Origin: Clostridia bacterium
Lineage (GTDB): Bacteria; Bacillota; Clostridia; UMGS1883
NCBI GenBank assembly: GCA_045661145.1
Contig: JAZRFC010000048.1
Location: 2,071 to 66,070 of the forward strand
Reading direction: 5' to 3'
Length of the DNA: 64,000 nt
The notes beneath the pieces were generated by a model, which did no database searches, was not told where the DNA came from, and saw nothing but the letters and a program-made list of their open reading frames with translations. Of this stretch, positions 13,255 to 40,472 are shown piece after piece. Numbering within the stretch: position 1 is the stretch's first letter; each line of letters begins with the position of its first letter. The position numbers and the translations under genes were made by a program.

Positions 13255-13893
13255 TTATTTTTTATGTAGACACTCTGCGACCTGCTCGGAAATTTGTTTC
13301 ATTCCTAACTCGGTAGGATGACCGTTTTCTTTGTCTATTTCTTTAAGATATAAATATTTGACGTTGTTTTTTTCGCAGGCTTCTATAAAGCCATTGGTAA
13401 TCTCTTCTTTCAAATCAGTGTTTATGATAACGATTATATCCTGAGCAACTTTTTTTGCTTTGTCAATCAGATAGCAAAATGCAGGCAACACGCACTTTAA
13501 TTCCTCGGCAGTCCAATCTGAATACTTAAGATTCCCGATAGGAGCATCTATCCAGGAATCGTTAGTTCCTCCGAATATAAGCATTGTGTCGATTTTGTTT
13601 TCAATAAAAACTTTTTCCAATATATATTTGTCTAGTCTGTTAATGAATGATGATTCGTCAGGAAGAGTCGGCCTTACCGTATTACAAATTGTTGAACCCG
13701 AAAAACTATCGTTAAGTATTATGTTAAGGCTGTTTTCGTTTGCGAATATATGCCACCAGGTTTTTTCTACGCCTTTGACGATTGGCTTGTCTTTCCTTTC
13801 GTCGCAATAATAAGCGTGATGTCCTTCGGGAATATATCCCGCATAAGTTGAGTAACTGTCGCCCATTATAAATATGTTTTTCTTAGTTTTCAT
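13255..13893 (-). CDS. SGNH/GDSL-family hydrolase
   Basis: 212 aa with block I GDSYS, block II SGST, block III GGTNDS and a C-terminal GHPT. Confidence 0.75.
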   Translation of the reverse strand: MKTKKNIFIMGDSYSTYAGYIPEGHHAYYCDERKDKPIVKGVEKTWWHIFANENSLNIILNDSFSGSTICNTVRPTLPDESSFINRLDKYILEKVFIENKIDTMLIFGGTNDSWIDAPIGNLKYSDWTAEELKCVLPAFCYLIDKAKKVAQDIIVIINTDLKEEITNGFIEACEKNNVKYLYLKEIDKENGHPTELGMKQISEQVAECLHKK

Positions 13894-32962: not shown

Positions 32963-33039
32963 CTGGGTGTAGCGCAGTTTGGTAGCGTGCTTGAATGGGG
33001 TTCAAGAGGCCGGGAGTTCAAGTCTCCCCACTCAGACCA
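32963..33039 (+). tRNA. tRNA-Pro (anticodon GGG)
   Basis: A 77 nt cloverleaf was folded by hand. Acceptor CTGGGTG/CACTCAG has the bacterial tRNA-Pro C1:G72 pair and A73. Anticodon loop is AT-GGG-GT, T-arm is GGGAG-TTCAAGT-CTCCC, and CCA is encoded. Confidence 0.9.
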
Positions 33040-34640: not shown

Positions 34641-36029
34641 ATGACTCAGAACACAAAAGAAAATAAAATGGGAACGCAGAAAATCAATTCATTGCTTCTT
34701 TCTATGGCAATTCCCATGATGATTTCAATGCTTGTACAGGCACTCTATAACATTGTGGACACAATGTTTGTATCAAGGCTGGGGCAGGATGCCCTGACGG
34801 CACTCTCCCTTGCATTTCCCGTGCAGAATTTTCTGATTGCCGTAGGCGTAGGTACGGGCGTGGGTGTAAACGCACTGCTTTCAAGGAGTCTTGGTGAAAA
34901 GAATGCTGAAAGGGCAAACCGTACTGCGGAAAACGGAATATTCCTTTTTATAATCAGCTCAATTGTTGTAATGCTTCTTGGAATTTTCTGTGTAAAGCCC
35001 TATTTTCAGTCATTCGGCACTACTGAAAACATTGCAGAGCTGGGTACAGATTACCTCAGCATATGTATGATATTTTCAATCGGTCTTTTCGGGCAGATAA
35101 TGTATGAAAAGCTTCTGCAATCAACGGGCAAAACTGCTTACAGTATGATTATTCAGCTTTTCGGTGCCGTTATTAACATAATACTTGACCCCATTATGAT
35201 TTTCGGTTATATGGGCTTTCCTGCTATGGGTGTAACGGGTGCGGCAATTGCCACCGTTACGGGACAGATAATTGCCCTTTTCGTGGGGATTTTTATAAAC
35301 AGAAGATTCAACCGTGAGATTTCCATATCTCTCAAAAATATTATAAAGCCCAGCGGAGAAATAATAAAAAGAATTTATTCCGTAGGCTTCCCGTCTATTT
35401 GTATGGCATCAATCGGCTCCGTGATGAATGTTGGAATAAATCAGATTATGCGTCTGTTTAGTGCAACAACCGCCGCAACGGGACAGGCTGTATTCGGTGT
35501 GTATTTCAAACTCCAGAGCTTTGTGTTTATGCCAATATTCGGACTTAACAACGGTATGGTGCCCATCGTTGCATACAATTTCGGTGCGAAAAACAAGGAA
35601 CGAATCAAAAAGACCATTCGCCTTGCAATTATTTATGCAACGGGAATTATGCTTGTTGGTTTTGCTCTCTTCCAGATTATTCCCGAGGCGCTCCTTCGAA
35701 TTTTTGATACGGGAACAGACGATATGAAAGCCATCATTGAAATCGGTACTCCCATGATGCGCCTTATTTCAATCAGCTTCCTTGCGGCAGGGTACTGCAT
35801 CGTGGCAGGCTCGGTTTTTCAGGCACTCGGCAGCGGATTTTTAAGTCTGTGGGTGTCAATCTGCAGACAGCTTGCAGTTTTGGTGCCTGTGGCATTTGTG
35901 CTTGCATATTTTACAAGGGATATAAATATTATGTGGCTTTCATTCCCCATTGCGGAGATTGCTTCCTTTGTCCTTTCTATGATTTTTATGAAACGAATTT
36001 ACAAAAAAGAAATAGATATAATTAAATAA
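34641..36029 (+). CDS. MATE-family efflux transporter
   Basis: 462 aa with 12 TM segments and the typical N-terminus (LLSMAIPMMISMLVQALYNIVDTMFVSRLGQDALTA). Confidence 0.9.
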   Translation: MTQNTKENKMGTQKINSLLLSMAIPMMISMLVQALYNIVDTMFVSRLGQDALTALSLAFPVQNFLIAVGVGTGVGVNALLSRSLGEKNAERANRTAENGIFLFIISSIVVMLLGIFCVKPYFQSFGTTENIAELGTDYLSICMIFSIGLFGQIMYEKLLQSTGKTAYSMIIQLFGAVINIILDPIMIFGYMGFPAMGVTGAAIATVTGQIIALFVGIFINRRFNREISISLKNIIKPSGEIIKRIYSVGFPSICMASIGSVMNVGINQIMRLFSATTAATGQAVFGVYFKLQSFVFMPIFGLNNGMVPIVAYNFGAKNKERIKKTIRLAIIYATGIMLVGFALFQIIPEALLRIFDTGTDDMKAIIEIGTPMMRLISISFLAAGYCIVAGSVFQALGSGFLSLWVSICRQLAVLVPVAFVLAYFTRDINIMWLSFPIAEIASFVLSMIFMKRIYKKEIDIIK

Positions 36030-36204
36030 AAATATGGGCGGTAAAATTACCGCCCATACTCTTATTATATAATAGTAAAATGCCCTTTGTAAATACTTTT
36101 TTGAAAGTATGAAAAAAATTCTCCCATTTGCATAAAAAAAGGTTTTTTGATTTTCGGAAAATGCCAATTGAAAACGGTCAAAAAAGCTGTTACACTTAAA
36201 TCAA

Positions 36205-36605
36205 GGAAAGGGAGGTACACTCCGATGGAAAAGTAAGTAAGGAAACTTTTTTAAGAAGTTAATAATCTGATTCACACCTGCGGTAATTGATGGAGTATAT
36301 TAAGAAAACACGGCGGTGTGACGCTTAACATAGATTGTTTGGAATGAAAGGAACAAACAGTGCAGGGAGAGTCGGAAGAGTAACTTTTTAAGAAAGTACA
36401 AAAATTCACCTTTTGCGAAAAACACAGAAAGACCAGGGAATTCTCCTTAGAGAAAAGTAATTGCTGAAACGAGTTCTGTAAACAGTGTAATGGTGAAAGG
36501 TAGACGAAGAAAGAGAGGATAACAAAAGATGTTAGATATCAAGAGTGACCAGAAGTGACCTCTGATTGTTGTAAAGAAAGCAGTCAGAGGTCACTTCTAT
36601 TTTTG
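36205..36605 (+). ncRNA. Candidate ~400 nt purine-rich non-coding RNA or long leader of unknown class
   Basis: The 660 bp gap has no ORF of 60 aa or more on the plus strand and stop codons in all three frames. Also seen: a possible promoter (TTGAAA 36168-36173, 17 nt, TACACT 36191-36196), several hairpins, an internal duplicated ~40 nt module and a perfect 15 bp terminator stem. Confidence 0.35.
36551..36605 (+). terminator. Strong intrinsic terminator at the end of the non-coding region
   Basis: AGAAGTGACCTCTGA (36551-36565) pairs perfectly with TCAGAGGTCACTTCT (36584-36598), followed by ATTTTT. Confidence 0.85.
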
Positions 36606-36688
36606 CCTAAAAATATTCATATTCGTGTTGAAAAAATAAAAAATTGTGGTATACTTAAAAAGGAAGTTTTCAAAAGAGGTGACACAAT

Positions 36689-37840
36689 ATGAATATTACT
36701 CAGGACATCAAGTACATCGGTGTAAACGACCGTGATATAGATTTGTTTGAGGGACAGTACATTGTTCCTAACGGAATGGCATATAATTCTTATGTAATAA
36801 CAGACGACAAAATTGCAGTTATGGACACTGTCGATGCAAGGTTTAAGGATGAATGGCTTTCAAATCTGGAAAAAGCTACAGACGGAAAAGCCCCTGACTA
36901 TCTTATCATTCAGCATATGGAGCCTGACCACAGTGCCAATATCAAGCATTTTGCAGAAAAATATCCCAATGCAAAAATTGTTTCATCTGCAAAGTCTTTT
37001 GTAATGATGAAGGGATTTTTCGGCACAGACTTTCTTGAAAATCAGATTGTAGTGGGAGAGGGGGATACCCTTTCATTGGGAAGTCACACCCTCACCTTTG
37101 TAACTGCACCCATGGTGCATTGGCCCGAGGTTATCGTAACCTACGATTCCAAAGACAAGGTGCTTTTCTCAGCCGACGGCTTCGGTAAATTCGGTGCATA
37201 CGATACAGACGAGGATTGGGCTTGCGAGGCAAGACGCTACTATATTGGTATAGTGGGCAAATACGGACAGCAGGTGCAGGCACTTCTTAAAAAGGCGGCA
37301 GGACTTGATATAGAAATTATCTGTCCTCTCCACGGCCCCGTTCTGACAGAAAATCTTGGATACTATATTAATCTTTACGATATATGGTCAAGTTACCGTG
37401 TTGAGTCGGAGGGTGTTGTAATTGCGTACACTTCCGTTTACGGAAACACGAAAAAGGCTGTTGAAATTCTTCGTGACAAGCTCACGGAAAAGGGAGTCAA
37501 GGTTGTTGTAAACGACCTTGCCAGATGCGATATGGCAGAAGCGGTGGAGGATAGCTTCCGCTACTCGGTAACGGTGCTTGCGACAACAACATATAATGCC
37601 GATATTTTCCCTTTTATGAGGGAGTTTATAAACCATCTTACAGAGCGTAACTTCCAAAGCAGAACAGTTGCATTTATCGAAAACGGAAGCTGGGCACCTA
37701 TGGCAACCAAGGTTATGAAGGGTATGCTTGAAAAGAGCAAGAATCTTACCTATGCTGAAAACGAGGTAAAGATTATGTCTGCTCTTAATGAAGAAAGTGA
37801 AAAACAGCTCGAAGCACTTGCTGAAGAGTTGTGTAAATAA
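36689..37840 (+). CDS. FprA-family A-type flavodiiron protein (O2/NO reductase)
   Basis: 383 aa with a metallo-beta-lactamase-like domain (HMEPDHS) and a C-terminal flavodoxin-like domain. Confidence 0.88.
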   Translation: MNITQDIKYIGVNDRDIDLFEGQYIVPNGMAYNSYVITDDKIAVMDTVDARFKDEWLSNLEKATDGKAPDYLIIQHMEPDHSANIKHFAEKYPNAKIVSSAKSFVMMKGFFGTDFLENQIVVGEGDTLSLGSHTLTFVTAPMVHWPEVIVTYDSKDKVLFSADGFGKFGAYDTDEDWACEARRYYIGIVGKYGQQVQALLKKAAGLDIEIICPLHGPVLTENLGYYINLYDIWSSYRVESEGVVIAYTSVYGNTKKAVEILRDKLTEKGVKVVVNDLARCDMAEAVEDSFRYSVTVLATTTYNADIFPFMREFINHLTERNFQSRTVAFIENGSWAPMATKVMKGMLEKSKNLTYAENEVKIMSALNEESEKQLEALAEELCK

Positions 37841-37861: not shown

Positions 37862-38020
37862 ATGAAAAAGTATGTATGTGACATTTGCGGTTGGATTTAT
37901 GACGAGGCTGAGGGTGCTCCCGATATGGGAATCGAGCCTGGTACAAAGTTTGAAGACCTTCCCGAAGATTTTGTCTGCCCCCTTTGCGGAGTAGGTAAGG
38001 ATAGCTTCTCAGAAGAATAA
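37862..38020 (+). CDS. Rubredoxin (52 aa; too short for the supplied ORF track)
   Basis: Manual translation gives [52 protein letters not shown], with both CxxCG knuckles. A GGAGG RBS lies upstream. Confidence 0.9.
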
Positions 38021-39729: not shown

Positions 39730-39848
39730 GTACGAAGAAATATATATTGCTAAGTGTAAACAGTTATGCTATAATGAAATTAAGTATACTCAATTAGCCC
39801 AAGCATAGTTTTTAAGGCTTTTTGAAGTGCAGAAAGAAGGGGACAGAA

Positions 39849-40472
39849 ATGCATGGTATCGGGAAAAGACTTTTTGCTGTCATAAACTATCCGAGAACGC
39901 TTCCGGTTTATTTGTGTGCAATATGTTCCAGACAAAAACATCTGATTAAAGCAGATGTTGCCAGATGGAATGAAATTGACCAGATAAAATTCAATTTATT
40001 TGAATCGATTAATTGGTATATGACGTATAAAAAGGAGTTTCGCAATCTTATTCAGCATCGTTTGAAAAATCCATCACGCACATTTGCAGCTATGGTGCAT
40101 TTCGTAATTGCCCGCATTTTATGGAAACCGATGGAAAGCCTTTACATATACACAGAAAATATAGGCGGAGGCCTTTATATTCAGCATGGCTTTGCCACTA
40201 TTATAACGGCTGAAAGAATAGGCGAAAACTGCAGAATATACCAGCAGGTAACTATTGGCTATAAAAACGGAGCCTCTCCCCCTGTTTTAGAAGATAATGT
40301 TTCTGTTACCTGCGGTGCAAAAGTGCTGGGTGATATAACAATGCATTCGGGCAGTTTGGCAGCGGCAGGTGCTGTTGTTGTTAAGGATGTTCCCGAAAAT
40401 GCCATCGTGGCAGGTGTTCCTGCTAAGGTGATTGGGTACAAGGATGAAAAAAACCTCAATTTTCAGGGCTGA
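39849..40472 (+). CDS. Left-handed beta-helix O-acetyltransferase (serine acetyltransferase-like)
   Basis: Hexapeptide repeats (IGENCRIYQQVTIG...VSVTCGAKVLGDITMHSGSLAAAGAVVVKDVPENAIVAGVPAKVI). Confidence 0.8.
   Translation: MHGIGKRLFAVINYPRTLPVYLCAICSRQKHLIKADVARWNEIDQIKFNLFESINWYMTYKKEFRNLIQHRLKNPSRTFAAMVHFVIARILWKPMESLYIYTENIGGGLYIQHGFATIITAERIGENCRIYQQVTIGYKNGASPPVLEDNVSVTCGAKVLGDITMHSGSLAAAGAVVVKDVPENAIVAGVPAKVIGYKDEKNLNFQG

Follow-up and report, generated by a model that had tools for sequence, protein, structure and literature searches.

What is encoded in the 660-bp gap between a MATE transporter gene (34641–36029, + strand) and the flavodiiron gene fprA (36689–37840, +) in contig JAZRFC010000048.1 of a Clostridia bacterium? 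Within the 64,000-nucleotide stretch of this contig analysed here (the window), a sequence-only reading had described a purine-rich, non-coding transcript in this gap, and had left open whether it was an independent small RNA (sRNA) or a long regulatory leader of the oxidative-stress operon formed by fprA and the rubredoxin gene that comes after it (37862–38020). We find that positions 36168–36604 (+) are an autonomous transcription unit, with a structured small RNA of ~400 nt as its predicted product. The word ‘non-coding’ is doubtful, as the most conserved parts of the unit are two tiny open reading frames (ORFs) with very strong ribosome-binding sites. For its function we propose, at about even chances, a ribosome-loaded small RNA with a ribosome-dependent stabiliser at its 5′ end and, at its 3′ end, a tiny ORF through which translation would be linked to the terminator hairpin. 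The features on which this proposal rests are the following, where SD denotes a Shine–Dalgarno sequence.

36168–36196 (+): sigma-A type promoter, −35 TTGAAA at 36168–36173, 17-nt spacer, extended −10 TGtTACACT
36205–36215 (+): SD1, extended SD GGAAAGGGAGG, a few nucleotides from the predicted 5′ end
36225–36236 (+): ORF1, mini-ORF ATG GAA AAG TAA (MEK*), conserved as SD, ATG, short frame and stop
36495–36519 (+): 3′ strand of helix P3 (GAAAGGT, 36495–36501) running into the extended SD TAGACGAAGAAAGAGAGGA (SD2)
36529–36558 (+): ORF2, ATG TTA GAT ATC AAG AGT GAC CAG AAG TGA (MLDIKSDQK*), near-invariant in the family
36551–36604 (+): intrinsic terminator, 20-pair stem 36551–36570 with 36579–36598, T-run 36600–36604

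A transcription unit with its own promoter and terminator

The longest plus-strand ORF in the gap is a 45-amino-acid (aa) GTG frame (36555–36692), in keeping with the earlier statement that no plus-strand ORF of 60 aa or more is present, and the purine content of the RNA region, which had been called purine-rich, is 63%. The region folds more stably than shuffled sequence, with z = −7.5 when the terminator is included and −4.1 when it is left out. Upstream, the MATE gene has its own terminator (36033–36058).

The predicted promoter has its −10 hexamer TACACT at 36191–36196, with TG at 36188–36189, and a predicted transcription start at ~36203. The site had been noted before and is present, but by itself it does not exceed chance (4 such sites in the region compared with 3.1 expected); what supports it is its conserved position. 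The same layout was seen 22–33 nt upstream of the first AUG in ~27 of 31 clusters of the family described below, the −35 being TTGaAA or TTGCAA, the spacer 17 nt (16 nt in a few) and the −10 TGnTAnnnT. The terminator proposed earlier was also recovered, as 20 pairs that include the perfect 15-bp core, followed by the T-run. Family terminators have stems of 14–25 pairs with a mean folding energy of −28.6 kcal/mol, and across 39 clusters 97% of alignment cells were paired and 16 of 17 stem pairs showed compensatory changes; none of 500 shuffles matched the observed values, and controls slid along the sequence were 35–44% paired. With promoter and terminator both conserved in the family, the independent-sRNA option of the sequence-only reading is supported.

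Distribution and genomic context of the family

Relatives were collected along two routes. Eighty FprA loci were fetched from GTDB genomes, all of them metagenome-assembled genomes (MAGs) of gut Clostridia. One of these (L001, with an FprA 95% identical) was the only FprA locus with the same intergenic region, at 91% identity; two more (L019 and L050) had a 55–62-nt near-identical piece on the opposite strand, ~3 kb downstream of fprA, and 77 of the 80 lacked the element. When the window and these three relatives were aligned, the promoter, the 5′ SD with its mini-ORF and the 3′ block were common to all, and the middle varied in length and sequence. Metagenome contigs were scanned with the pattern GAGG-N6-13-ATGYTNGAYATHAARAGYGA, which gave at least 120 loci, mostly from human and animal gut; all but four of the scan matches share the arrangement, those four being spurious matches in long ORFs. 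The family has at least 121 matches, with 41 clusters at 90% identity among the matches listed, and there is one copy per contig. A second copy was sought in the window and none was found, a look-alike at 13411 (−) being rejected as it sits inside a 212-aa ORF.

Carriers are gut-metagenome contigs, three Clostridia MAGs and the cultured Vescimonas fastidiosa MM35; the hosts are gut Clostridia (Oscillospiraceae and relatives). The Vescimonas element (L201:2290–2600; NZ_AP023416.1, ~65.0–65.5 kb, minus strand) was the one match in PLSDB, on an 861-kb replicon of this human-gut isolate that is labelled a plasmid. It occupies an unannotated 700-bp gap, is flanked by a TetR/AcrR regulator gene and spoVAC, and is followed by an EF-G paralogue. 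A viral collection and phage genomes gave no family match. A phage or plasmid origin was accordingly rejected, the sole ‘plasmid’ match being this 861-kb replicon.

The earlier impression that the RNA belongs to no known family was upheld by a search of Rfam 15, whose models include T-box, THF, glycine, c-di-GMP, 6S, OLE, ROOL and raiA: at the gathering threshold nothing was found on the element in the window or in 15 diverse relatives, and at E ≤ 10 the region 36000–36720 gave terminator-hairpin look-alikes only. The ORF2 peptide and nucleotide strings had no match in the literature searched, nor in the supplementary files of a survey of gut structured RNAs (first 200 files).

Could the unit nevertheless be a cis-regulatory leader, either a riboswitch or a leader-peptide attenuator, that controls the fprA–rubredoxin operon through read-through of its terminator? 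It lies 83 nt upstream of fprA on the same strand and, as an attenuator would, it has a short ORF that overlaps an intrinsic terminator, in the window and family-wide. Two relatives also lie within ~3 kb of oxidative-stress genes, although these loci were fetched through FprA and so are biased towards such a result. Against this, only L001 has the element upstream of fprA, and the L019 and L050 copies lie downstream on the opposite strand. Elsewhere it sits among unrelated genes: of the 33 clusters whose sequence extends far enough downstream, 12 are followed by a convergent gene, and no neighbour gene family recurs across the 41 clusters beyond near-identical contigs, which leaves an attenuator without a conserved same-strand downstream gene. 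Nor was an aptamer linked to a conserved class of downstream gene found, as only ORF2 and the terminator follow the structured body. In the window, fprA has a separate and better promoter at 36628–36655 (10/12 match), the 20-pair terminator is very strong and an antiterminator is unsupported. Because the neighbouring genes are unconserved and often convergent, the leader or riboswitch reading fails; we consider control of the oxidative-stress operon, as suggested earlier, to be highly improbable.

Decay of a protein gene, or of a mobile element, would be another source of such a sequence. We found no evidence in support, although the genomic position of the element does vary between organisms. 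Conservation is centred on the promoter, the SDs, the tiny ORFs and the paired helices. No ORF exceeds 45 aa, phage sequences gave no match, and the element is single-copy per contig. Within one species-level cluster (L114, 40 distinct sequences) the unit is conserved from promoter to terminator between flanks that are highly variable on both sides, which indicates purifying selection limited to the unit. We regard this origin as practically negligible.

ORF2 and the terminator hairpin

The sequence-only reading listed neither SD2 nor ORF2. SD2 (36501–36519) has an AAAG and a GAGG that are invariant or nearly so across 39 clusters, and its predicted duplex with the anti-SD, calculated with an assumed Bacillus-type 16S rRNA 3′ tail, has −13.2 kcal/mol in the window and a family mean of −14.0 kcal/mol, placing it in the top 6% of a background with a mean of −8.4.

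The first 20 nt of ORF2 and the preceding G at −1 are likewise invariant or nearly so in the 39 aligned clusters. Codon 2 is TTA in 38 of 41 clusters (TTG in 2, CTA in 1), codon 3 is GAT in all 41 and codon 4 is ATC in 39 (ATT in 2); AAG (36; AAA in 5) and AGT (38; AGC in 3) follow, and the seventh codon is GAA (33), GAG (4), GAC (3) or GAT (1). This pattern holds in loci of 40–58% GC. The search pattern permitted synonymous alternatives in ORF2, and the rarity of such variants is therefore informative; non-synonymous variants could not be found with it, which is a bias. The three relatives recovered without the codon pattern (L001, L019 and L050) are identical over the 20 nt. Fixed wobble positions in hosts of 40–58% GC argue that the peptide is not the only target of selection, which acts on the RNA or codon sequence.

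ORF2 closes 0–2 codons after codon 7, with TGA, TAA or TAG, to give MLDIKSE and its variants ending in -EG, -ER, -EQ, -EQK, -EQI, -EEK, -EAK, -EMM or -DQK; the sole exception is L019, with 15 codons. In the window the stop codon (36556–36558) lies inside the 5′ arm of the terminator, and its offset from the first stem base is −3 to +7 nt in 35 of 39 clusters; of the four exceptions, three are automatic folds that also included downstream sequence. With the stop codon in the stem, a ribosome on ORF2 codons 4–9 would have to unwind the 5′ arm and then occupy it.

Constraint of this kind bears on two alternatives. In the first, the unit is a gene for a tiny protein, with the peptide fMLDIKS(E/D)... 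as its product, for example an intracellular regulator or signal, and with an RNA that lends stability and high expression. The residues M-L-D-I-K-S-(E/D) are kept, position 7 is acidic despite the use of all four GAN codons, and ORF2, behind its very strong SD, always closes in frame. Yet even at 57–58% GC, where TTA, GAT and AGT would be disfavoured, there is almost no variation at the wobble positions or at the non-coding G at −1, whereas the C terminus varies in length and sequence. The peptides are 7–9 aa without a signal sequence, no export, processing or receptor genes are linked to them, and the structured body is conserved within subfamilies. We think such a peptide product unlikely.

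The second alternative is a structured sRNA without any coding role, working through base pairing or the binding of a protein, its SDs and ORFs being incidental or protective and the invariant 21-mer a seed or binding site. Constraint at the nucleotide level that includes the G at −1, the position of the invariant block directly 5′ of the terminator, and a structured body with helix-level covariation are all consistent with this. It does not, however, account for both ORFs keeping start, frame and stop while other features change, or for three kinds of stop codon at three positions that always lie at the stem base. A complementary site was looked for in the 64-kb window at ≤3 mismatches, a weak test, and none was found. 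A purely non-coding role appears quite unlikely.

Whether ORF2 itself serves as an antiterminator strand is a separate matter. An AGTGACC repeat, noted earlier as a possible alternative partner for the terminator, is present, and its first copy is ORF2 codons 6–7; the antiterminator role that was attached to it is unsupported in the window (z −0.27). ORF2 codons 4–6 can pair with the terminator 5′ arm in some lineages, with nine perfect pairs in L119 and L176.

Other observations touch the same region. At 36528–36541, GAUGU-UAG-AUAUC can form a mini-hairpin of five pairs around the ORF2 start, too weak to be stable by itself; the two ATC-to-ATT variants retain the pairing as G–U, and the G at −1 is invariant. 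The terminator stem is semi-conserved, GACCCTTGATTGC pairing with GCAGTCAAGGGTC and including a recurrent U–G pair, and many loops hold GUAAAGAAA or GGUGAAAGR. Such semi-conserved stem and loop sequences suggest that the hairpin may be more than a terminator. The conserved ...K-S-E end of the ORF2 core may resemble chloramphenicol-type stalling contexts, in which the penultimate residue is Ser, Thr or Ala, and the cat-leader peptides MKKSE and MVKTD; the literature searched had neither peptide, and we treat the likeness as a tentative lead. The fetched DNA contained no serS gene, the start of whose seryl-tRNA synthetase product (MLDIK...) ORF2 might mimic, and no rRNA gene to which the invariant 21-mer might be complementary.

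ORF1 and its Shine–Dalgarno sequence

At the 5′ end, the elements of the earlier description (GGGAGG, CUCC and ATG GAA AAG TAA) are all present. SD1 includes GGGAGG at 36210–36215, part of which can pair with CUCC at 36220–36223, and this GGAG/CUCC pairing appears in the minimum-free-energy (MFE) fold. SD1 begins ~2–3 nt after the transcription start predicted from the sequence. Its duplex with the anti-SD has −14.6 kcal/mol in the window, and the ORF1 family mean is −12.7 kcal/mol, compared with −8.4 for long ORFs of the same loci. Extended 16S complementarity near an RNA 5′ end is what characterizes a STAB-SD, and SD1 has it, given the predicted start and the assumed 16S tail.

In ~31 of 41 clusters the 5′ module reads GAAAGGGTGAtaCC(A/G)ATG, then 1–3 variable sense codons and a stop, usually TAA. 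The encoded peptides include MT, MY, MYK, MYR, MQR, MNR, MAK, MFK, MG and others, the window having MEK. ORF1 keeps its start and stop through changes of the codons between them, an argument for selection on the act of translation and not on a peptide. Modules of SD and mini-ORF can also occur in tandem, with three or four in L177, L117 and L190 and two in L119, L168 and L176; in L177 (4423–4900, −), L117 and L190, modules encoding MPQ*, MY*, MY* and MYK* are spaced ~50 nt apart before the ORF2 module.

These modules invite a third alternative, an RNA that titrates ribosomes or tRNA: an abundant decoy of strong initiation sites that would tune global translation by sequestering 30S or 70S particles or by draining specific tRNAs through peptidyl-tRNA drop-off, as phage lambda bar minigenes do. 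Each RNA has 2–5 extended-SD modules, of types that look related (UAGAC-AAGAAAG-(SD)-AUG), mini-ORF codons are variable, and the ~130-nt L097 form is little beyond two modules; the minigene principle has moreover been described (PMC2490762). But titration leaves the invariant ORF2 sequence and the conserved structured domains unexplained, and stoichiometric titration of ribosomes would demand very high copy numbers. We hold it to be very doubtful.

Proposed mode of action

In the ribosome-loaded small RNA that we favour, ribosomes would load at both ends of the RNA. SD1 and the mini-ORF would act as a ribosome-dependent stabiliser that blocks 5′-exonucleolytic decay. ORF2 would be translated, and selection would bear chiefly on the RNA or codon sequence and on translation into the terminator hairpin, a diffusible ORF2 peptide being less likely as the selected product. 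We infer translation of both ORFs from the conservation of SD, start, frame and stop. A ribosome on codons 4–9 would open and then occupy the 5′ arm, which would couple translation status to the integrity of the 3′ hairpin, and with it to RNA lifetime or 3′-end formation. Instead of a cis leader of fprA, the RNA would be a ribosome-engaged sRNA that acts in trans or senses translation, and its output would lie in trans or in the ribosome–RNA complex itself.

Several results weigh against this proposal. About 10 of the 41 clusters have no recognizable mini-ORF1, and L096 has a 12-codon ORF in its place. The tendency of ORF2 to pair with the 5′ arm as an antiterminator is weak and not universal (family mean z −0.8). 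The 16S tail used for the SD energies is an assumed one, of the Bacillus type. As homologues were mostly collected with a sequence pattern, amino-acid and nucleotide conservation are not cleanly separable, and the unbiased sample is three sequences. Finally, a switch by which occupancy of ORF1 would control SD2 was dropped, because SD2 accessibility was unchanged when the ORF1 footprint was forced unpaired in thermodynamic modelling of 10 members.

A broader claim, to which we give a small but real chance, is that these RNAs form a new, ribosome-engaging class of regulatory RNA: stable, abundant and holding ribosomes at two or more super-strong sites with minimal ORFs, with ORF2 as a programmed stall or a sensor of translation status at the terminator hairpin. 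Such an RNA might report or buffer translational capacity as a ‘6S/CsrB-like’ ribosome decoy, or might sense, as a free-standing unit, gut compounds that target the ribosome, with no cis-regulated gene.

A structured body that differs among lineages

Between the two ORF modules lies a body for which the following features were predicted in the window.

36245–36281 (+): 5′ strands of helices P1 (36245–36261) and P1b (36266–36281), MFE fold
36307–36335 (+): motif 1, AACACGGCGGTGTGACGCTTAACATAGAT, holding the local hairpin ACAC-GGCG-GTGT at 36308–36319
36334–36361 (+): variable hairpin after motif 1, ATTGTTTG...CAAACAGT, MFE fold
36362–36397 (+): 3′ strands of P1b (36362–36376) and P1 (36381–36397), MFE fold and duplex energies
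36403–36416 (+): motif 2, AATTCACCTTTTGC, in which ACCTTTT (36408–36414) is the 5′ strand of P3
36441–36454 (+): hairpin TTCTC-CTTA-GAGAA, MFE fold

P1 is a long-range helix of 17 bp (36245–36261 with 36381–36397), extended by P1b (36266–36281 with 36362–36376), and five substitutions in L001 retain the P1/P1b pairing. The ~40-nt duplicated module described earlier proves to be this helix: its exact direct repeat is only 10 nt, and the two copies are the two strands of P1/P1b. Within the subfamily P1 is conserved as a structure, its sequences being unrelated. When the 45 nt after the ORF1 stop were paired with the 45 nt before motif 2, cognate duplexes had a mean of −25.9 kcal/mol compared with −13.1 ± 5.0 for non-cognate ones, and the cognate partner scored best in seven of nine independent members.

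The window subfamily comprises the window, L001, L098, L168, L199, L119, L148, L137, L175, L157, L161 and L176, and shares motif 1 (AACACGGCGGTGTnACGCnTnATATAGAT), motif 2, the small hairpin and a GGTAGAC just before SD2. Motif 1 is nearly invariant in L001, L098, L168, L199, L119, L148, L137, L175 and L176; a variant of it occurs in the group of L114, L153, L104 and L134, and is invariant in the 40 distinct L114-cluster sequences. Its hairpin ACAC-GGCG-GUGU competes with the TCACACC...GGTGTGA hairpin proposed earlier, which is missing from the MFE fold. The other hairpin proposed then, TGTTTG...CAAACA, is present in the fold, and alignments read by eye place a hairpin of differing sequence after motif 1 in other subfamily members.

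Motif 2 reads AATTC(G/A)CCTTTTGC in the subfamily, and RNAalifold pairs it (36408–36414) with the GAAAGG(T/C) just before SD2 (36495–36501) to form P3, the first pair of which covaries (A–U 4, G–C 4, G–U 3). The hairpin at 36441–36454 has counterparts in relatives, read from the alignment: UCCUC/GAGGA in L199, GUCUC/GAGAC in L137 and UUUC/GAAA in L119 and L161. A pseudoknot between the motif 1 loop (GGCGG) and CGCC of motif 2 finds no support: as read from the alignments, motif 2 has CACC in the window, L001, L137 and L157, and no compensating change goes with it.

Other lineages have other bodies: in the group of L114, L153 and L096, AUGRCACC and GGUGYCAU form a helix before SD2, and L097 has ~50 nt between its modules, a short form of ~130 nt overall. 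As the bodies differ among lineages, the constant core of the family is the promoter, the SD/mini-ORF module or modules, SD2 with ORF2, and the terminator.

Further observations on the locus and its relatives

A possible operator lies upstream of the promoter. In the window, a perfect palindrome ATTTTC-G-GAAAAT (36150–36162; ATTTTCGGAAAAT) ends 5 nt before the −35, and many lineages have a palindrome TTTGTACAAAAT ~8–10 nt upstream of the −35. It is because so many relatives hold TTTGTACAAAAT-like palindromes at the same position that we suggest an operator. The window palindrome resembles the CodY-box consensus AATTTTCWGAAAATT.

The 12-codon frame of L096, a GC-rich cluster of 27 contigs, is MMPPRTAGVWGK*, lies ~190 nt upstream of ORF2 and contains a Pro-Pro motif. 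In the related form of L153 and Vescimonas a 2-codon ORF is followed by a hairpin, and the L096 frame reads through that hairpin.

A tmRNA or tRNA-like RNA was rejected, as ARAGORN found nothing on 35500–37200. So was a sponge of the CsrB/RsmZ type, since the window has 11 GGA compared with 9.5 ± 2.4 expected, and L050 and L019 are below expectation.

The sole Rfam match at gathering level in the 64-kb window is a tRNA gene (32963–33036, +). A weak L20_leader match at 36020–36104 (−), with 32.8 bits compared with a gathering score of 58.7, is the MATE terminator hairpin on the opposite strand. A 216-aa ORF (39822–40472, +) downstream of the ZIP and PAP2 genes had no Pfam match. In L019 (4001–5791), the flavodiiron protein has 596 aa, being fused at its C-terminal end to flavin-reductase-like and rubredoxin-like parts, and desulfoferrodoxin-like and rubredoxin ORFs come next. 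A THF riboswitch (L111:8019–8115) and a ZMP/ZTP riboswitch (L100:1876–1956) are on the same contigs as an element and are unrelated to it.

Comparison with known systems

Leader-peptide attenuators and antibiotic-sensing upstream ORFs (trpL, ermCL, the cat-86 and cmlA leaders, and Escherichia coli toiL) have, like the family, a very short ORF with a strong SD that overlaps a stable hairpin or terminator, such that the ribosome decides the fate of the hairpin. Unlike them, the family has no conserved downstream gene, consistent antiterminator or regulatory codon runs, and its unit adds a second tiny ORF at the 5′ end and a conserved structured body. Dual-function sRNAs (RNAIII/hld, SR1/SR1P and SgrS/SgrT) are also independent small transcripts that combine structured domains with a small ORF, as the family would do on its inferred translation. 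The ORFs here, with 3 and 9 codons in the window, are much shorter, ORF2 is constrained at the nucleotide level, and the Rfam searches gave no sequence or structural homology.

In Bacillus, strong SDs confer ribosome-dependent 5′ protection against RNase J1 in the cryIIIA STAB-SD, hbs and spyTA (yrzI) R-T4 (PMC4113751, PMC5737220, PMC12067863). Like these, the family SD1 lies near the 5′ end of its RNA and is complementary to the 16S 3′ end over an unusual length. In contrast to them, it precedes a conserved ORF of 2–4 codons and can be repeated in tandem, and the RNA that it would stabilise does not encode an ordinary protein.

Also in Bacillus, Rae1 cleaves the short ORFs of spyA (S1025) and bmrX at ribosomes paused on the stop codon (PMC12407103, PMC10351889). 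The family resembles these in having a tiny Firmicutes ORF and in the position of its stop codon, control of RNA fate by pausing being known for spyA and bmrX; the peptides differ (ELLMHYTMEKDQV compared with MLDIKSE in the family). As the stop lies at a variable distance from the conserved block (7–9 codons), a site fixed at ‘12 nt upstream of the stop’ would not be conserved, and a Rae1-type site of that kind was rejected as inconsistent with the variable length of ORF2 (PMC12407103). The lambda bar-type minigenes mentioned above likewise have mini-ORFs of 2–4 codons with a strong SD and, as in the family, usually a UAA stop. Those minigenes are known from their toxicity in Pth-deficient hosts, whereas the family mini-ORF belongs, as a conserved component, to a chromosomal RNA gene and is variable in its last sense codon. 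Individual modules have precedents; their combination, a free-standing structured RNA bracketed by a mini-ORF and a nucleotide-invariant ORF of 7–9 codons that ends in the terminator stem, is without precedent.

Implications

In human and animal gut Clostridia the element is common, present as a single copy and kept by purifying selection, and at the same time unannotated and absent from Rfam and the literature searched. Frames this short are ignored by gene callers and small-protein surveys, and tend to be discarded by structured-RNA surveys. At the least, a well-defined new RNA family has been added and a false annotation as ‘leader of the oxidative-stress operon’ removed. The cultured carrier, V. 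fastidiosa MM35, makes work on expression and function feasible. If our proposal is true, the family would be a small natural model in which to study mini-ORF translation, strong-SD stabilisation and the interplay of ribosome and terminator; and if ribosome loading is the purpose of the RNA, it would represent a new route by which Firmicutes couple RNA fate or regulation to translational status.

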